A stretch of DNA of 63,541 bases, filler included, from Rhabdomonas costata (lineage: Eukaryota), in NCBI GenBank assembly GCA_019059605.1. It is 39 parts of 39 records of this genome, joined end to end, with 100 filler letters (N's around TTAATTAATTAA, not from the genome) between each part and the next. Parts side by side here need not be neighbours in the genome. Positions count along the whole stretch, not along the records: positions 44,061 to 45,592 come from JAHMHO010013655.1; 38 more parts are not named here. The stretch is one strand, 5' to 3'. Made by a program: the position numbers and the translations under genes. Of the stretch, positions 16,061 to 45,938 are shown piece by piece (positions within the stretch are counted from its first letter, which is position 1; every line of letters starts with the position of its first letter). The notes below the pieces were generated by a model. It searched no databases. It was not told the DNA's origin and saw only the letters and a program-made list of their open reading frames with translations.

Positions 16061-16712
16061 CTGTGTGTGTACGTGAGGGTTGACAAACGACCTAAAGGAT
16101 CCACTTCGGGACCTTTGACCCTTATTTATAAAACCGGCCGTATTGCTCTGCACTTAAGGCCGCAACTTGCTGATGGGAAAAGGGGTAGAGGGCGCAAAAA
16201 GTGCATGCTCACCATAATGCTGNNNNNNNNNNNNNNNNNNNNNNNNNNNNNNNNNNNNNNNNNNNNTTAATTAATTAANNNNNNNNNNNNNNNNNNNNNN
16301 NNNNNNNNNNNNNNNNNNNNNNTTGTTGTGGGTTTCTGGGTGTGTATTGTGCGTGGTCTTTGTGGTGTGGCTGGTGGTGGTGGATGAAGTGTGGTTGTGG
16401 AGTATGCGCGTACTGGTGCTGGTGGTGTTCCTTGCTGTGGGTGTTGCGTTGTGGTTGGGTGTCGAGGGTGTGGATGGTATAGAGGGTGTTGCGTTGGACG
16501 CTGGTGTTGCTGTGGCTCATGGTATTTCTTCTGTGATGGGTTCTTTGTTGTGTGGTGTGTCCTTGGGTGCTTTGGTGCTTGTTGAAGTGTTGGTTGTGTG
16601 ATGGACTACGTGTTTGGTACTGGTTTGTGTTACGGTGTGAGTAGGTGTCATATGGTGAGAGGTGAGCTTATGGATTTCGTTGGTATTGGCGGCTGGAATC
16701 CTTACGTGAAAA

Positions 16713-17800
16713 GTGGGCGGAAGCCGTCCACGAGCACTTCAGGATGAATTGGGCCTAGAAGCTGCAAAGCCATGGCTTTGTGCCGGAGAACCCATCTGGG
16801 TACCCGCACCTTCGCCGCGTGATCCAGGAGTCACACAAGACTTTGGTATTCCTCCTCTATTATCGTGCGCCCCACGGTTTCTTCGTGGTGTGCAAAAGGT
16901 GGTACCAAGGGAGATGGCGAAATACCTCGCTGATAACAATGTCTTTGAGCCCGTCAGCATGACCTTGGAGGACGTGGTGAAGGAGGCTAAAGAGTTTAAT
17001 GAGCGAGGTGAATTCACCACGGGAACTGGCATCGTTTATAATTATGGCATCTGGAAGCCCACAAATGGCAAGTTCCTGTTCATCTACGGCACAAGGTCAG
17101 GCCCGAGACACCAAGACGCTGCCAGCAAGACAGCTGGCCCTCCTCGACAACAACGTTACGAGGCCCACAATGCACTCGTGCGGATCATCCAGCACATCGA
17201 GGACGCCATGCAGGAGAAGGATAAGATTCACCAGTCAAAGGATGGAATCAAAGCGTTTTGGGGCATCGACAGCGTGAACGCCTTCACCCGGATGGTCCGA
17301 GCCAACGCCAATGTTGTGCTGGAGAACTGGCAAGAGGCGGTGGATTTTTGCACCATGTACACCTCCTTCCAGTTCCGGTCGATGATCAACCGGACCATTG
17401 AATCTGTCGATGAGGCTTGGGACTTCGTCATCCAGCTGGATTCTGGGATGACGGAAGACGGAGCTCCACTTGAATGGACCCTCGTACCTAAGTGGTGGTC
17501 CAAGATGGGAAAGGGCTACACTCGAGCCCAAGTCGCATAAATCCTAACCTACCTGATCGAGCACAACTCCAAATCAAGTGGATGCCAATGGGAATGCAGG
17601 CTGCCACGAAGATCGCCAACATTGCATGCTACCATGTCGAGAAGGCGCAGGCATACCGTCTCGGTCCCGGAAGGTCCCTTGCGGTTTGCCGCTGCATCGA
17701 TGATATTTACTCGGCAGGCGTGCCACTACCCTCGCAAGACGCCTACGGCATTGAATACAAGACCACAGCGAGGGGAGTTCGGTTGTGTACCTCTGGGTCC
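16713..17800 (+). mobile_element. Penelope-like retroelement reverse transcriptase, degraded
   Basis: Motifs in order: YNYGIWK..KFLFIYG, FWGIDSV, VDFCTMYTSF, then premature TAA 17538-40 (YTRAQVA*ILTYLIEHN), a frameshift, QIKWMPMGMQAATKIANIACYHVE, and CRCIDDIY. These correspond to PLE RT motifs 1-5 (DFxxLYT, QxxGxPMG..AxL, RYIDD). Confidence 0.75.
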
Positions 17801-22856: not shown

Positions 22857-24169
22857 ACTCCAGAAAACAGCGCGGCAGGCCGCGTGGGCAGGACCGCCGC
22901 CTGCCCACCCGGCGCGGAGTCGCTGTGCCATTGCTGGCCCTGGCCGAACCAGTACCCCATCCCGCCCAGGTAATTGCTGAGGCCCTGCCGCGCCATCTCA
23001 ATCTCCGAGGAGCCAAAGCCCTTGGCCTGCCACAGGAATGTGCCACGGTTACGGTTACTTATATTTACGGGGGTAATATATATGGTTATCCCCCTTCCCC
23101 CATATAAGCGGTTGCTTATATTGGGAGCGAGCAAAGAAGACTGCCGAGTCCATTCTGCTGCCAACTCCGAAAGGTACGACTGGATCCAACGGTTACATTG
23201 TGTATAAGGAACCACGTACCTGTATCACGAGCTGCAGTGAACGACACACAGAAAAATATGCGCCGTACTGATCAAAAGACCAGCATCTTCCTCTGTACAA
23301 CGATAAGTAAAAAGCATATACGAACCAATTCAAAAGGCACCATCAGGGACGATGCCAATTGGACCGCCGGAGACCCACCCCGAGTGCCTGCGTCACGTAA
23401 CACGGAGCAGCAAACGACACGGGCCACAAACCTTCAGGTGGAAGGTCTGCTCGAACCTCCGGTGGAAAGCCCGAGCCCTCTTCGCGACAGTCCGGCTCAA
23501 CCCGCAGCCACGCAGGGAGAGCCCCTCCAGAGCTCTCCGGACCGCTGGGGCGGAGCCCAGCTCTGTCGCAGAGCGGCTCTCGTGGCTCAGCAGGGCCACG
23601 TCGACCCGGAAGTCCCCCACGGGAAGCAATGTCTGGAACCGCACCACGTTCTCGCTCCCCGTCAGCGCAGCAAACTTGGGGCTTTGCATCACAGACAAAC
23701 AATAAACAGAGGTCACGCGACCTCATCCTCATCACGCGACACGTATTATCCGAACACACGGACAACGAACAATCAGGGTCAATGTTTCAGCGTCACGTGT
23801 CCTTCACGCAAAACGGTGGCACAAAAGAAAAAAGGAGGCAGGAAAAAAGGGGGGGGGGTTGCTCACGTGCAGGCACCTCGCATCTGGTACAGCAACTGAA
23901 GCACTGACCCAACAAAAACCAAAACCAGACGAAGCGTGCAGAGACCTTTTCCGCAGGTCCCACATCTCCCGCTTGCGCTTCTTTCCGGTGGCCTTCCACG
24001 AAACGTTACCCTTCGCAAACTCATTGGAGAGCAGGACGCTGAACGCACCAATGTCCGGGGCCTCGGCCTGCATCAGAGCGGTTCCCCCGGACTGCTCCAC
24101 CACAGTGAAGGCGCTGTCCTCGTCCTCGACGCCAAAGTAAAGCGTGAACCGCACAGGCACCAAGGTAGC
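22857..24169 (-). CDS. MOGS: Mannosyl-oligosaccharide glucosidase (glucosidase I, GH63), internal exons
   Basis: Exons 24169..23946, 23681..23432 and 23026..~22857 (GT-AG, in frame). They contain FHRRFEQTFHLK|AKGF..MARQGLSNYLGGMGYWFGQ...ALFSGVP, the SNLLGGIGYFYG...LFTAVPSR region of GH63. Confidence 0.85.
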
Positions 24170-34147: not shown

Positions 34148-34271
34148 GTATGGACCCCTCCCCATTCANNNNNNNNNNNNNNNNNNNNNNNNNNNNNNNN
34201 NNNNNNNNNNNNTTAATTAATTAANNNNNNNNNNNNNNNNNNNNNNNNNNNNNNNNNNNNNNNNNNNNGTG

Positions 34272-34407
34272 TTTGCAAGCATTGCTTCGACCCCCCTCCC
34301 CTTCCCATCAGAGCTTTTCTGGGTTTTGGACGTTGTGCGAACGACACATCCAAAACCCAGAAAAGCTCTGATGGGAAGGGGAGGGGGGTCGAAGCAATGC
34401 TTGCAAA
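34272..34407. repeat. Perfect 59-bp inverted repeat with 18-nt loop at contig start
   Basis: 34272-34330 is the exact reverse complement of 34349-34407. Confidence 0.92.
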
Positions 34408-35137
34408 TTCCTATCAAAAGGAACCTGAGCAGAGAAAAGAGAAAAAACCAATGATCACAACTATGGGGACCCCGTTCATTTGTGTACTACTAATCCTCTA
34501 GAAAAAAGGTTAATAAAAATGTCGTATTCACGGCATTTCTTGTGCTGTCTCCCACCTCTGTTACACTCCATTAAAAGGTACTCGCAGCGATTCAGAAAAT
34601 TTAATGGAGGCATTTAATGAAGAACACATCCGCACCTTCCAAACATCGTGTAATTCTATTCGGATGTGTTCGCCCCACTCTTCGCACCCATAACACCACC
34701 AAAACACGAAATCAAACTATGTCCATTAGGGTCTCCACTATACAGAAACGTATTCACGCGAAGGCCAAGATATTTAGCACTGCTCGGTTTCAGCAATAGA
34801 GAAATGCCCGTTAATCCAAGCCTCAAACTTTCCGCGCTTGATGGAATCTGCTTACAAGAGAATCGGTCCATTTCTTGGCAAGCCAAGAGAAATGAACCCA
34901 TTCCGTGTCATATGTCCTTCTTCTATTTCAGCACGCAAAGCTTTTCTACTCTCCAGAGAATGGCTGAAAGATTTCTGCTTCAAAACCGAATCAAGCAGCT
35001 GAGTCGACTTCCGAGGGTGGATTTCCACACCGGAATCCAGCTCACGTTTGAAGCTCTTTCTGACCAAGACCTTGCTCTTGACTGCATGGCTCGCAATTGT
35101 CGATAAGACCGAAACAGTGGAGTTTACCTTCTCCAAG

Positions 35138-35566
35138 ATTATTCTGAACAGGAGCAAAGCTCGCAAAACCAGTGCCAAGAAGAACATCTCGAAGATGTTA
35201 TGGACCACAGTGGAAACCCCTGCGCAGTCTTCATGAACGAGGAGCAGGGCGGGAACTGGGGAACGCACTGCAAGCCCGCTTTTCAAGAAGGAACCGGTAA
35301 GCATCTGTTTACGAGTTCATTTCTTATAAAAGAATGATTTTTAGTGAGATAATATTACCCTTTGTTTAAAAAAAATTGCGACCTGTTCCTCAGGACTCGT
35401 CACCAAGTTCATCGGTTCCGAAATATGGCCGGCGTCTCAGCGGGAAGTCGTCTACGTCGGCTCCGATATGCGGGTGACTCTCGCAGAGTTCATCGGCAAG
35501 CAATACAATCCTTTTGTGCACTTCGAGGCGGCTGTGAAGAAAGGCCTTAATGCCGTGCACGTCTGA
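35138..35566 (+). CDS. Hypothetical protein, last two exons
   Basis: ...HCKPAFQEGT G|gtaagc (35296) joins cag|GA (35394) to give GLVTKFIGSEIWPASQREVVYVGSDMRVTLAEFIGKQYNPFVHFEAAVKKGLNAVHV*. The 5' boundary is uncertain. Confidence 0.4.
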
Positions 35567-35900
35567 TCCACCATTTGAGTCACCTGGGGATACACAGAGA
35601 ATGAACGCTTTTCTAAATGATTTCTTGGCCGCTTTGCGAAGGCGACATCTCTGGAGATGAAGTTCTTGTTACATACCCAATCCGCATTGGGTTTTTGTTC
35701 TGCCGCCCTCAAGGTCGAGCAGGACAGGGGTAACGTCACGAGGTGAGCATTGAAAAAACTGCTAAAAATGCCCTCCAATTTCACCAGACTGACACACACA
35801 NNNNNNNNNNNNNNNNNNNNNNNNNNNNNNNNNNNNNNNNNNNNTTAATTAATTAANNNNNNNNNNNNNNNNNNNNNNNNNNNNNNNNNNNNNNNNNNNN

Positions 35901-37110
35901 GTTGGGGTGGGGGTTGCAGTACACGCCCGCGGAGCAGCAGTACTACAGCGGTGCACGTGACTACAGTGCGGGTGGCCAGGTGTGTGCATGGGTGTGTGCC
36001 CTCCTTTGCGGATAGGGTGGACTCTTTCTCGTCGCCCATTGCGTGAGTGAGCCCGCAAGATCTTAGAGAGGATAAGGTCACTGGGGGGCGACAGAAACGG
36101 TGTTTTTGCCCCCCCCCCCTCAAGTCTGAAACCTGCACTTTTCGTGCGAACCCCTCTTGCTGCTCTTCTCTTTTCAACTCAAGCTTCACTTGAACTTCCC
36201 TTTTCTCCTGGGTGTGCTCCTCTGCAGTCCACAGGGATCCTCCGGCATCCAGGGATGACACCCCCGCCGACGACCTCGGTGTGGGGGATGCAGTACACCG
36301 CAGCCGAGCAGGCCCGGTACAGCGGGGCCCACGACTACAGCCAAGGCGGCCTGTCTCAGGTGTTTCCGTGACGCTTCGTGTCTGCAAAGGGCCGAAGAAA
36401 TTCACCCCCCCACCACCACCCAAAAAGCGGGGACACGGTCGTTCACGGCTGCTCACCAAAGCCATCTCTCCTCAGCCCTCCCAGGATCCACTTTCACGAA
36501 TCTATGCGTTGCCCCACCCTGCCTTTTCTTCATTCTCGATGCCCCCATTGGTTTTATTTGTCTCTGTCGCCCTCAGTTTCCCACAGTGCATGCCGGAAAA
36601 TCAATCCAAGCTGCCCATGCATGACTTTGATCCCTCTCATCATCGTGGCTTCTCGCCGTTTTTCCCGTCTTGACCGATGCACTGCTTCTCCACACCCCCA
36701 CCCCGCCCTATGTAAGTTGATCATTTCTCTGCTTCCAGCTTCGTACGCCTTTCCCCTCCCTTGCGTGCCCATTGTTGTTGGCAGCTTATCCTGCTCTGCG
36801 TGTTACCTCAGATGCCCCCCGCTTCCCTCTTCTCCCTGTACTTTTTTTTTACTTTGTTCTGGCTATTTTCGGCGGGATCGATATTTTATGCTGAATGGTG
36901 TCGTGGACGTTGATCTGTTCTCTATCGGCTATCGGCAACTTTTCTGCGGTCGTGATCTGTTTTGTGGTCCTTCTCTATTTTGGGGTGGTTGCCCAGGGAC
37001 TGGGGTCTGGCCCCTACCTCCCCTTCCCGACAAAGTCGGTGTGGGGTATGGAGTACACTGCGGCGGAGCAGAAGAAGTTCAGCGGTGCATACGACTATCG
37101 CACTCAGCCG
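35901..37110 (+). CDS. Repeat protein with one repeat unit per phase-0 exon
   Basis: Exons 35901..35979 (WGLQYTPAEQQYYSGARDYSAGGQ), 36228..36359 (STGILRHPGMTPPPTTSVWGMQYTAAEQARYSGAHDYSQGGLSQ) and 36997..37110 (GLGSGPYLPFPTKSVWGMEYTAAEQKKFSGAYDYRTQP), all with GT-AG borders. Confidence 0.8.
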
Positions 37111-38699
37111 GTGCGTTGTTTGCTTGGCTTGCGTGCATCTTCTCATTAAGGGAACTTCACAACTGAAACCGAAAGGCACATTTCCGGGTCCTTTGTTGAG
37201 CTGAAGGTGCCGGAAAGCAACCCTCTCCAGCTCAACCAAGCAGACACTCACTTTCGTGGACACGCTCTGCCCACAAGTCGTCCGTTACTGTGCGTTTACC
37301 TCGTGTGTATGATTCTCCGTGGTTCGGTTGGGTTTGCTTCCAGTGGTGGTGGAGTCCTCGTCTCATTCAGCCCTTTTATCTGGTTTGGGGGTTCAGGCGG
37401 CTCCCGCTTATGGCGCCGCTCAGCCTGCCCACNNNNNNNNNNNNNNNNNNNNNNNNNNNNNNNNNNNNNNNNNNNNTTAATTAATTAANNNNNNNNNNNN
37501 NNNNNNNNNNNNNNNNNNNNNNNNNNNNNNNNGGGTGTGTGGAGCTTTGAGCGCACTGCTTAGTAATAAAAAGGATCCTGAAGCGCCGCTGTTAATGTCT
37601 TCTGTTGTGGTTACATTTCAGCCCTACCCTGAAGGGATCCCGAGGGAAGAGTACGATGAGACTCTTTGTTGTCGGGCCACCCACAATGGCTGCGGCAAGC
37701 TGAAATACGCATGTTCCTTCTGGAGGACGGGTATCATTCCGCGGACAATAGATACTTTTTATGCCATTTTCTCTCCAACATACTGAAACACCCCAAGCAG
37801 CAGGTTGGAACCAGGTTGGAACCAAGCTCCGGAAAAAGGTTCTTTGCGAGAAAATCCAATCACAAAAAACGCGGTCCGATGCATTTGGGGGTGGGGATGA
37901 GGAGTTTAACGACGTCAAAAGGTTTAAGATGCTTAAAAGGTGTTAACGTTATAAAGGTATTACAACACTGGACGTCTTCTATTGAGGTATCTTTCCTCGG
38001 TATCTTTTCTCTGGTATTTCTTAGAAGCTTACTTCGGTGAATTTGCCTGGAAGGGTGATGAACGGTTTTCTGGGACGCCACACAAATGGGACAGAGTTGT
38101 TTTGGTGAATGCCAGTGCCGCAGCCGCAGAAGCATGGCGCGACCGGCGCGGGAACGTTGCCTGGGAGTGGGGGAATTTTTTGGTAGCTATATGCCCTGTA
38201 AGGGACACATCGGGTTTGGGCTGGGGCTGGCGTGTCCTGGCCTGTCTTGTGGTGAGCCGGAAGCGCGCGTCTTGACCAGGACACCTTTTCTTTTCTTCCC
38301 CTTGATTTCCCGATTCCCCCTTGTCCTCAGTAATTTTCTTTCGTGCACAAAAAGTTTAACGCCCCCCCCCCCAAAAAAAACGCAACGGACCCCAAAAGGT
38401 GAGATACGCGCATACCAACGCCACTTGGTCCAGCGATGGCGAGAATTCGGATGGCCTCTGCAGAGGCAGAAGTCGCAAAATGGTTCCTACAAACTCTAAG
38501 GTGCCCGCAACGCAGCAGTGCAGTTGGTGGCTTCATTCGGACAAAAAGGAAAAATGACACAAAGGCAGTAAACGGACAAAAGAAGATTAACTGACCGATA
38601 AAAAGACGCCAGGGAACCAGCTGAAAGATCAATCCGCCTTCCCTTCATTGTCCCCTTGGATGGCATGAATGATGAATTCATTCCCTTAGTTTTGGGACT

Positions 38700-42200: not shown

Positions 42201-42426
42201 TCCTCCTCCCCTTAACACACCTTTCTGTGTTTTACCTCAAAGAAGGAATTGCACCTCCCAAACGACCAAGGAGCTGGGGATGAGGAAATACAAGCCGGAG
42301 CATTTTGATTCCAAATAAAACCCCCCNNNNNNNNNNNNNNNNNNNNNNNNNNNNNNNNNNNNNNNNNNNNTTAATTAATTAANNNNNNNNNNNNNNNNNN
42401 NNNNNNNNNNNNNNNNNNNNNNNNNN

Positions 42427-43030
42427 GTGTGTGTGTGTGTGTGTTGGGCGCATTGCGCGCTGGCTGTTGCCTGGTTGCCTGGTTGCTTGGTTGTTGGTGA
42501 CCACTGTGGACTGACTGGCGCACTCGCTGTTGGACACGCCTGCTCTCGGGAGATGCCGTTGAAGCGAATGGTGCCGCCGGGAACCGATACCGGCTCACCG
42601 CCGAACGTCCCACATCTGGTAACCTCCCTTCTGCCCCACGGGTCCCGGGCCTTTGTCGCGCGGCTGCTCTTTTTCAGCAGCTACCTGCATTGCTCCATTG
42701 TTGCTCAGGTCTCTGCGACTCCACACTCCTTTCTTTGGGGGGCTGGGGCCTAATCTCGCGGGAACGACCCTTGGAGCTTTTCTTTCGGATGGGTGAACGG
42801 GCAGCACCGGTATCGACAGGCGTTGCCGTGCCAGCATATCACTGCGCTGCGGGCTATTCCTGCCCTCTTCATCTGAACCTCCTGTACCTCGGGGTTCCCT
42901 CACTGACTCTTTGCCTTGGTGTGCGTGTGTGTGTGTGTGTGTGTGTTGGGGGCATGTTGCTTGATTGAAGGTTGATGACCGCTGCGGACTCGCAACAGGC
43001 ACCGTTGGAGCGAACGGTGCTGCGGTACTA
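42427..43030. repeat. Two diverged copies of a (GT)n-headed repeat about 500 bp apart
   Basis: Both copies (42427 and ~42920) have (GT)n-TGGG followed by similar blocks: GTTGCTTGxTTG..GxTGACCxCTGxGGACT and CCGTTGxAGCGAAxGGTGC. Confidence 0.55.
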
Positions 43031-44271
43031 CCCGCTCTGCTTCGTTGCTGCAGCCAGGTTTGGGTCTCTGAGTGTGTGCGTGGGGTTTCAGGGCCTAGGG
43101 GGCAGCTTCGGAGCCTGCAGTGTCACATTTCTGCCGCGTTGAACCTCGGGTGAGCGGATCCGACGCGCTGTGACCACCTATCAAAACTTACCAGTTGCAA
43201 AAAAAACATGAAATACGCCCAGATAAGAGCAGCAAGTCAACACCGAAAAGATCAACACCTACCTCATCTTCTGCAGTCGGATTAGGACCCCCCCCTTTTT
43301 AAGGTCTTATTTAAATACAACAATGCAATTGAATCGGGTCGTCCTTCAAAAAAGCTTTTGACTTGGTGAAAACTCATCCGAACGCGTGCGCGGTCAGAAA
43401 CACACCACTCGGCCTCGACCTCTGCCGGGCTGACAAAGGTGGGGTTCAGACAAGACGGAGGGTCTCCAATAGAGGGAAGGCGCTTCACACAGGCCTCCCC
43501 AGAGCGCATCTGTTCAGCACACCAAAGACGACATATGGAGGTCATGACATGCAGAAGCGGGCTCAAAGCTCCATAAACACTCGCCCTTCTATCAAACTAT
43601 CAGCATCTCCAGATACCTTTTTGGGGCTTGACACCAAATGCCTGAGCCAGGACATGAGCACTAGAAAAGGCGGCGAAGAGGAGCGGGAATGGGAGTGGAG
43701 CGTCGGGAGTATATTGACCTTTCTCAAACGGTCTTGAAGGTGGGCGCGGTCCGCAGGCGTCCACCGGATGCGGTCAGGATTCCGCCGGGGCCGCGGGGCT
43801 TCCGAAGAAGCAGCCTCGGCCTCGGCAGGCAGACACGCCATTCCCACTGTTCTCTCTCTATCAAACTACCCTTTGCCTACAAACAGTTAGCCCACAAGAG
43901 GCCGAAAAGGTACTCCTGCAAAAAATAAACGATGCGAGCCTGAGTCTGCGGATGGGGGGTNNNNNNNNNNNNNNNNNNNNNNNNNNNNNNNNNNNNNNNN
44001 NNNNTTAATTAATTAANNNNNNNNNNNNNNNNNNNNNNNNNNNNNNNNNNNNNNNNNNNNGTGGGGGGGGTCATTTATTGATATGCTGCGGTTTTCTACA
44101 ATATCTGGTTTCGGTTCAGGCGCGCACGTTATAGGAGAATGTCGGGGGTCGGGGGCGGAGCCTCTTCGTTCTTCTCTGTTTCTTCAGTGGGTGCTACGTC
44201 TCTTCAGTGAGTCCTTTGGCATGGATACGCAACCACCTTCCCTCTTCCTTTCACTACTTTTCACTCCCCAG

Positions 44272-45314
44272 TTGCTCAGCTGGTGCGTGGTGGTCTTCCT
44301 GTTCATGAACACCTGCTACACCGCGAACAAGCTCTTCTCGGGGATGAGCTTCTATGGAGCGGAACGCACCAACCTGTACTTCTGGAGCTTCTTCGAGGTC
44401 AGCCTGAGAGTGAGCGTCTTCATGGGGATCCCTGTGATGTTCGGCTTCTTCGACAATCCCTTCGGAGACGACGCCGCTGGTGTGACCATAATGGCTTTGC
44501 ATTTGTAGGGCTCATTATCTCGTGCTTTTTTTTGGTGTCCTTTTTGTAAGCATCCCAGCCTCACCCCACCCCAACCTTAGCATTTGCCAGTTTTTGGACG
44601 CGGGAAATTGTAAAAGCAATGTAAATTAATGTAAAAAAAAAACGTGAAAATTTCGTTCAAAAGTTGCAAAAAAAAAAAAAACGGGGGGGATCCCTGTATC
44701 TCCCCCTCATCTGGATGTGCTTTATGTGTCATGTGGGCAAAAGATTCACTTTGCCTTGGCTTGCATGATACACAGACTTTCCGACGGATAAGTTCAGCCT
44801 CGACTTGTGGAAGAACACCAACGAGTGCATCAGGCAGTCCCAGAACATTCCTCGTCTCTGCGCCCCGCCCGCAGCCAAGCCTGCACCCACCCCAGCCGCT
44901 CCAACGTCATGCCAGAAACTGCCCACGCTGTGGTGCAAGCTCGTGGCAGGGGTGGACCTGTTCCGGAGCCCTCTGAGGGTGATCAAGTACGAGGCCTGGA
45001 AACTCCACTTCATCGCAGCATACGCCTTTATTCCCTCCACCCCGTGGTGGAAGGGGACCTTCCTCAGTGCGGGGTTCATGTGGGTGATGATGGGTCTGGG
45101 CCTGTCGTACGTCTCCTACCTTGGGTTCTCCACCGACCCCTTGGCCCGCACCCTGCGGTTGTGCTCGTACACCTCCACCACGACAACCAGCGTGCCCTGC
45201 AGCAAGTGGAGCACAGACACGGTGTCCAACCTGCAGAACCTGACCAACTTCATCCTTGGGCTGTACATTGGGCTGGTGCTAACTCGATGGTGGAAGACCC
45301 GTGAGCTCTACCAG
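44272..45314 (+). CDS. Bestrophin-family anion channel with two tandem bestrophin domains, partial
   Basis: Exon 44272..44479 plus exon 44776..45300/45314 (phase-1 GT-AG). The first domain ends FFDNPFGDDAA|DFPTDKF. A P/A-rich linker follows, then a new domain start IKY...WWKGTFL...LTNFILGLYIGLVLTRWWKT. Confidence 0.8.
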
Positions 45315-45938
45315 GTTTATTGAGATGCTCTTGTTTAGCAAGAGAGACTGCCCTGAAAAGCCCAGGAGTCAAAGTTCACAATCCTGTAGCAAAGGCTTTC
45401 TTCTCCAAAGATTGCACCACCCGAACAAGGGGGCCCAGGCAGATGGCTTAAGGCCGTCCAAATGGAATAACCAAAGAAGAGAAAGGAGAAGCAGAGAAGC
45501 TGTTGAAGCCACCATCGTTGTGTTGTATCTCTTAGGTTGTGTTTGGCCGCACACAGCACGGCGATGTCATTGGTGCGGCCAAACACAACCACNNNNNNNN
45601 NNNNNNNNNNNNNNNNNNNNNNNNNNNNNNNNNNNNTTAATTAATTAANNNNNNNNNNNNNNNNNNNNNNNNNNNNNNNNNNNNNNNNNNNNTGTTTGTG
45701 TGCTTATTATGCAGCACCTCTTGACTTCTATTGTTTTTCTTGTTTGTGCGCGTGTCCTGCATGCGGGTTTGAATCTTTGGTGGCCCGGAAGGCGTGCGCG
45801 GGGCGTCCTTAAAGAGCTCAAGAATGCGGGGAGGTACTTCATTAAAGTGGAGGATTGCGTCTCAATCGGTAAGGGGGTGGGTGCACCGGACCTAACGTGG
45901 CCTTAATAAATTAAGCAAAAGTGGCGGGTTGGGGCTCA

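Follow-up and report, generated by a model that had tools for sequence, protein, structure and literature searches.

The 63.5-kilobase window analysed here, that is, the whole stretch of DNA taken from the genome of the euglenid Rhabdomonas costata, consists of 39 contigs of 1523-1534 nucleotides (nt) each, apparently sorted by length and separated by spacers of the form N44-TTAATTAATTAA-N44. One of these contigs (JAHMHO010013655.1, positions 44061-45592 of the window) carries part of a bestrophin-related gene, which is confined to it, and the adjoining contigs provide no genomic context. Sequence and frame listing gave three exons, named A, B and C, with GT-AG introns between them, and exons A and B join in frame. 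We propose that they belong to a euglenid gene that encodes a concatenated bestrophin, in which several channel units follow one another in a single chain. The translations of exon A (P0001, 69 amino acids) and exon B (P0002, 179 amino acids) were compared with P0003, a transcript-derived R. costata protein of 1315 amino acids from EukProt, which shows 76% identity over 100% of exon B and was the only significant match (1 of 992 candidates) in a search among longer proteins.

The contig opens with the 3' part of an intron (44061..44271, plus strand like the other features unless noted). This part is pyrimidine-rich, has a guanine plus cytosine (G+C) fraction of about 0.52 and carries an AG at 44270-71, and homology to P0003 starts at 44269/44272. 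Exon A (44272..44479), located by its homology to P0003, encodes the final membrane helices of a bestrophin unit that corresponds to unit 3 of P0003, as far as NPFGDDAA. Its end reads ...FFDNPFGDDAA plus the base g (44479), the first base of a split aspartate codon. The next intron (44480..44775) is A/T-rich (G+C 0.40-0.42), 296 nt long and of the conventional GT-AG type, with GT at 44480-81 and AG at 44774-75. Exon B (44776-45314) opens with 'ac', which completes the codon GAC (aspartate), and the spliced reading is NPFGDDAA-D-FPTDKF. With this intron removed the sequence is colinear with P0003 without any insertion or deletion, and NPF is separated from FP by six residues in each. A preliminary description of this DNA had predicted a splice from 44479 to 44776 that rebuilds NPFGDDAADFP; the splice is exact at both positions, in frame and of the GT-AG type.

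Exon B lies inside a single stop-free frame of 184 codons (44769-45323), with a GT donor at 45315. Its translation contains, in this order, the helix FPTDKFSLDLWKNTNECIRQSQ, the Pro/Ala-rich segment CAPPAAKPAPTPAAPT, the segment ...LWCKLVAGVDLFRSPLRVIKY..., PWWKGTFL, a hydrophobic helix and NFILGLYIGLVLTRWW. The first part of the exon (44776..44843, P0002 residues 1-22) completes the aspartate codon and encodes the post-clasp helix FPTDKFSLDLWKNTNECIRQSQ, which forms the C-terminal end of unit 3 and aligns both to FPTEKFSRDLWKHTNECITQSQ of P0003 and to the FP.E.F helix that closes every unit. The inter-unit linker follows (44844..44924, P0002 residues 23-49); it is Pro/Ala-rich, reads NIPRLCAPPAAKPAPTPAAPTSCQKLP and contains no stop, no methionine and no hydrophobic segment. 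By tblastn, conservation with P0003 is limited to its first third, and the remainder is variable. The rest of the exon (44925..45314) encodes the N-terminus of unit 4, namely W..L.G...PLRVIKY, PWWKGTFL, the first membrane helix, an extracellular loop and the pore helix, and the pore-lining helix motif NFILGLYIGLVLTRWW lies at 45243-45296. The passage of one stop-free exon from a bestrophin tail through a linker into a second N-terminus, recognised beforehand by IKY, the WWKGTFL segment, a hydrophobic stretch and NFILGLYIGLVLTRWW, was therefore correctly described.

Downstream of exon B, a second conventional GT-AG intron of 221 nt (45315..45535) can be removed to join ...TRELYQ to VVFGRT, and the product is colinear with ...IREQHQVVFGRT of P0003. 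Exon C is represented by its first 17 nt (45536..45552), encoding VVFGR and two bases of a threonine codon, and these are the last trustworthy sequence of the contig. The exons had a G+C fraction of 0.55-0.64 and the introns one of 0.40-0.50, with 0.505 over all contigs of the window. A C-rich segment of 27 nt in the intron (44550-44576) resembles the DNA of the Pro/Ala linker at 44871-44897 with 78% identity, which is probably a chance likeness of low-complexity sequence.

The 3' end of the contig (45553..45592) is an inverted copy of the start of exon C. Its minus strand reads VVFGRTNDIAVL, which is identical to the last 12 residues of P0003 in 12 of 12 positions (tblastn, 45589..45554, minus strand). 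The arms of the inverted repeat (45535-45552 and 45573-45590) are 18 nt long, 100% complementary and separated by a 20-nt loop, and this segment is probably a misassembly. Terminal fold-backs were present at 2 of the 78 contig ends in the window. The other one lies at the 5' end of the contig 34269-35800, with arms of at least 40 nt and a 56-nt loop, 3 nt from the end. P0003 stops at exactly the residue where the contig folds back, so both assemblies break at the same place; a chimeric read, a real hairpin or the end of an exon could account for this.

The bestrophin identity of the gene was assessed mainly through P0003. This protein matched PF01062 in three stretches with an expectation value (E) of 4.7e-55 and 187 bits (cut-off 24.2), compared with 62 bits for the Bestrophin_2 type, and matched PF25539 with E 9.9e-17. 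Against solved structures, all 13 of its 13 matches were bestrophins (E 7.5e-9 to 1.8e-5). In tblastn, exon A aligned to P0003 residues 1054-1124, the C-terminus of unit 3, with 76% identity (E 1e-27), and to the C-terminus of unit 2 with E 4e-7. Exon B aligned to the junction between units 3 and 4 with 72% identity (E 1e-70); its alignments to the junctions 1 to 2 and 2 to 3 and to the N-terminus of P0003 showed 28-38% identity, with E of 7e-21, 1e-16 and 3e-16, respectively. A profile, A1, was also built from the single-unit proteins P0005, P0006 and P0008, each of which passes PF01062. P0002 residues 56-179 fitted columns 11-111 of A1 with an hhalign probability of 98.8% (E 7.4e-17), and exon A fitted columns 298-331, the C-terminal end, weakly (E 7e-4, probability 26%). 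These comparisons support the assignment of both halves of the junction to the bestrophins by sequence likeness. The two bestrophin domains noticed in the preliminary description, placed head-to-tail, were borne out by the colinearity of both exons with P0003 and by the fit of the second half to A1.

The motif positions in P0003 revealed its repeated organisation. PLRxxxY occurs at residues 23, 399, 809 and 1188, RWW at 110, 510, 897 and 1294, and NPF at 323, 725 and 1116. P0003 thus comprises three complete units of about 360 residues each with their linkers, followed by the first 143 residues of a fourth, and it has no natural 3' end. A methionine stands 22 residues before its first PLR motif, as it does in the single-unit protein P0005 of the same species, and unit 1 of P0003 is therefore the true start of the chain. 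Of the alternatives raised at the outset, the data support further repeats outside the contig, since the colinear P0003 has at least four units.

A second multi-unit protein of R. costata, P0004 (568 amino acids), contains unit 1, a linker and half of unit 2, and is 78% identical to P0003; by its sequence it is classed as the product of a second gene copy (a paralogue). The units within one chain are 28-31% identical to each other. The identity between P0003 and P0004 at the same position was 75% for unit 1 and 85% for unit 2. This difference between within-chain and same-position identity indicates that the architecture is old and conserved: the concatenation would predate the divergence of the gene copies, and each position appears to be under its own constraint. 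In the same way, we infer that the window holds the junction between units 3 and 4 of a further gene copy or orthologue with the same architecture, and it is highly likely that the gene of the window encodes at least four units. The linkers, three in P0003 and one in the window, are of unequal length, share no motif and contain no hydrophobic segment.

These features bear on the possibility that the chain is a polyprotein, i.e., a precursor cut in its linkers into ordinary single-unit subunits. Euglenids are known for such precursors, those of the light-harvesting protein LHCPII and of the RuBisCO small subunit (RbcS) in Euglena being examples, and the non-conserved, probably disordered linkers that separate the bestrophin units would suit a cut. 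The Euglena precursors resemble the present case in that several homologous units stand in one euglenid reading frame. However, the units of LHCPII and RbcS are near-identical, are joined by a conserved short linker and are cut after import, whereas the bestrophin units are strongly diverged and their linkers unrelated, with different lengths and without a common cleavage motif. Moreover, the contrast between 28-31% identity within the chain and 75-85% at the same position is that of specialised positions and not of the bulk output of one subunit, and the papers found to pair 'bestrophin' with 'polyprotein' all concern unrelated matters. We therefore consider a cleaved polyprotein most unlikely.

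The continuity of the reading frame was compared across all available junctions. The frame stays open at five of them, of which P0003 contributes three and P0004 and the window one each. These junctions are of both RNA-derived and genomic origin and belong to different gene copies. In P0002, methionine occurs only at residues 101, 104 and 105, and the stretch that separates the clasp from the second unit's first membrane helix has none. Hence translation could not start anew and yield a complete second unit. It is almost certain that these sequences represent a real multi-unit open reading frame. The contrary explanation is that the junction is an artefact, produced either by a chimeric contig or by reading across tandem single-unit genes that trans-splicing in fact separates. 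The fold-back at the 3' end of the contig and the fact that euglenid messenger RNAs are trans-spliced would fit such an artefact, but the same colinear stop-free junction was recovered by two independent assemblies, one genomic and one RNA-derived (P0003), from different gene copies, and neither the five open junctions nor the missing start codon of the second unit agrees with it. An artefact is thus hardly credible.

To our knowledge, all bestrophins studied so far are homopentamers built from single-unit chains, whether encoded by the human retinal disease gene or serving as bicarbonate channels in algae. Each bestrophin unit crosses the membrane with an even number of helices and has cytosolic termini, and successive units of one chain therefore insert into the membrane in the same orientation. 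We propose the following arrangement for the concatenated form. The linker of 27-50 residues would lie in the cytosol, between the C-terminal helix of one unit and the N-terminal third of the next. Neighbouring units of the chain would pack side by side like adjacent protomers in the ordinary pentameric ring, and of the five positions that surround a single anion pore, one chain would fill most or even all.

To evaluate this packing, units 1 and 2 of P0003 were submitted to complex prediction. The pair scored 0.61, compared with 0.00 for the best of 3 controls; 51 of 78 solved complexes and 2 of 108 mismatched pairs attained the mark set for the prediction. The prediction runs agreed in at least 85% of the contacts, and the partner had a predicted local distance difference test (pLDDT) value of at least 71. 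The predicted interface comprised 273-290 contacts and included the C-terminal tail of unit 1 and the linker. It was heterologous, as only 8 of the 154 aligned contact columns were used by both sides; an interface of this kind is needed in a ring and does not suit a two-fold dimer. The passed prediction supports ring-type packing, but it may stem from the memory of solved pentamers and speaks for likeness rather than binding.

The same data were weighed against a chain of separate channels, in which each position would form a homopentamer with the same position of four other chains, so that at least four channels of differing properties would be linked laterally. The homopentameric state of all studied bestrophins speaks for this arrangement, as do the flexible appearance of the linkers, the divergence of the units (28-31% identity) and their differing clasp motifs, which could mean different channels. 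On the other hand, a linker as short as that of the window (about 27-50 residues) would presumably have to bridge neighbouring pentamers five times over, and the ring-type interface predicted between units 1 and 2 (0.61 against 0.00, with 8 of 154 columns shared) speaks only mildly against it, as this prediction may reflect memory. We regard linked separate channels as unlikely, and the units of one chain probably share one ring.

If the units share one ring, the number of units per chain becomes relevant. A chain of exactly five units, forming a single-chain pseudo-pentamer, is our favoured but unproven count and is put forward tentatively. A chain of four units could instead be completed by a single-unit subunit in the fifth position. 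P0005 would be such a subunit, having 360 amino acids, belonging to the same subfamily and showing the same distance from methionine to PLR as unit 1 of P0003, and no fifth unit was found in any search. P0003 is, however, merely cut off inside unit 4 and gives no sign that the chain ends there, and we consider this composition quite unlikely.

The pore motif and the calcium clasp were then compared among the units. The pore-helix motif F.LG.Y..LV..RWW is kept in the window and in all four units of P0003, together with the hydrophobic neck (L/F/L-or-M, positions 76/80/84 of bestrophin), so that all units seem capable of lining a pore. The clasp region was different. NPFG is present in the window, and the cluster that follows it, GDDAAD, has 3 acidic residues out of 6 and is the most acidic of the family. 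The equivalent six residues of P0003 units 1-3 are NFKAFG, GKEAQH and TRAATS, with 0-1 acidic residues each. The remark in the preliminary description that the acidic clasp is reduced was thus fair and even understated. Since the acidic cluster is not kept across the units, classical Ca2+ activation through five equal clasps is probably not to be expected for most units, and at most some positions could bind Ca2+. A bolder and still more speculative picture is that of a euglenid single-chain bestrophin with five different units in one pseudo-five-fold ring and with specialised positions, e.g., only some of them keeping the acidic clasp.

The distribution of related proteins was investigated by several searches. 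An exhaustive search with exon B among 1.84 billion representatives (E≤0.001) returned only P0004, P0005 and P0006; P0004 and P0005 belong to R. costata, and P0006 is a fragment of environmental origin. P0005 is a single-unit protein of R. costata with its own methionine start and at most 33% identity to the units of P0003; it could form an ordinary homopentamer or be a partner of the multi-unit chain. P0006 has 321 amino acids, one unit and the clasp GEGAAD. A word-based search among shorter proteins gave 3 matches, namely P0004, the environmental sequence P0007 (101 amino acids, with 66% identity to a portion of unit 1 of P0003) and the environmental single-unit protein P0008. In a metagenome scan with A1, 4 of 199 pattern matches were relatives (L001-L004), and a second unit was present in 0 of these 4; they are P0008-like single-unit transcripts of 500-530 amino acids with a coiled-coil-like tail. 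P0006 and P0007 point to uncultured euglenid-like organisms with related genes. In the Atlas, the look-alike nearest to P0003 was a cluster with a representative of 2002 amino acids, of the Bestrophin_2 type and mostly from Chlorophyta (score 0.94), and a second Atlas search without PF01062 gave only clusters of single-unit size with scores below 0.9.

Taken as a whole, the concatenated bestrophin with its units packed within one ring is in our view the best explanation of these data, with a probability of about 0.6. Several points weigh against it. The fusion rests on assembled sequences, i.e., a genomic contig and transcript-derived proteins, and beyond the window a single short-read transcriptome assembly, from one species, supplies all the evidence for several units. 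Since both P0003 and P0004 lack their 3' ends, four units per chain is a lower bound, and the intact mature chain is predicted from the reading frame. The 3' end of the contig is visibly misassembled, with the junction itself untouched. The complex prediction would look the same for packing within a chain and packing between chains, which it cannot separate. No fragment with a fifth unit was among the matches of the exhaustive search, which may be weak evidence against five units or may reflect mere incompleteness of the assembly, and a scoring of 8000 candidates for other long multi-unit relatives (723-2302 amino acids) found only P0003 itself. The direct identification of the exons is also modest. 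The check with PF01062 on the spliced translation, proposed beforehand, failed, as Pfam assigned a family to 0 of the 2 exon translations (69 and 179 amino acids) at E up to 10. This failure is due to the shortness and divergence of the pieces, and the bestrophin assignment of the window is transitive through its relatives. In a phmmer comparison of exon B with solved structures, 7 of 7 matches were bestrophins and covered residues 77-97 (the pore helix), with NFILGLYIGLVLTRWW itself aligned to residues 78-97 of solved BEST1 chains, but they were weak (E 0.29-0.85).

The proposed protein was compared with known systems. The canonical bestrophins (human and chicken BEST1, and BEST2; pentamers 4rdq, 8d1i and 6n26) share with it the homologous domain, the pore-helix motif and NPFG. 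They differ in that each chain carries a single unit and five chains make up a channel, whereas the window shows two units in one chain and P0003 at least four. Furthermore, their acidic cluster is reduced to DDAAD in the window and is absent from the units of P0003, and the identity to the solved proteins is low. Concatenation of protomers is also seen in the four-domain voltage-gated Na+ and Ca2+ channels and in the two-pore channels, in which the repeats diverged and the positions became specialised. These channels have an unrelated fold and four-fold symmetry, and the likeness is a functional analogy without family membership.

Fusion proteins with a bestrophin channel domain also occur in other protists. 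The bestrhodopsins of unicellular algae carry one or two rhodopsin domains and a single bestrophin unit per chain, unlike the several bestrophin units found here, and in the sources as far as they were accessible these are the closest described fusion. Their channels, on which Rozenberg et al. reported in 2022, are said to be still pentamers of chains. Our literature searches found no account of tandem, concatenated or polyprotein bestrophins, nor of bestrophins in euglenozoans or Ostreococcus. None is described in the accessible portions of PMC11092101, PMC11142338 and PMC11453091, and the word 'bestrophin' occurs 0 times in the accessible portion of the R. costata genome and transcriptome paper (PMC8219788).

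The architecture is a new form of a known channel family, seen at one genomic junction and in cut-off transcripts of one species. The value of the window is that its junction is genomic and lies in a single exon, which shows that the fusion assembled from the transcriptome is real. A natural chain of diverged units breaks the symmetry of the homopentamer, and the positions around the pore could then evolve separately. Concatenation also fixes the stoichiometry and the order of the subunits genetically. If true, the concatenation of a pentameric channel into one gene would parallel that of the four-domain Na+ and Ca2+ channels. Engineers assemble concatemers by hand as tools for studying pentameric channels, and from a natural one it would become apparent which asymmetries are favoured by evolution. 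Structural studies would have in it a ready-made construct, with which one could also ask what number of Ca2+ clasps or gates a bestrophin requires.

The remaining contigs of the window were examined for further genes. With P0003 as the tblastn query on the whole window, all matches outside 44061-45592 had E≥1.9, and no further piece of the gene was found. The whole window gave 0 Rfam matches, and Pfam (E≤0.001) gave none in the ten longest open frames of the other contigs (0 of 10; 187-276 codons), which include 16710-17537, 36372-37163 and 23108-23896. A majority of these contigs may lack coding sequence or be specific to the lineage. The contig preceding that of the gene carries (TG)n/(CA)n microsatellites at 42383-42430, i.e., at its start, and at about 42900-42960, which translate as VCVCVC or THTHTH.

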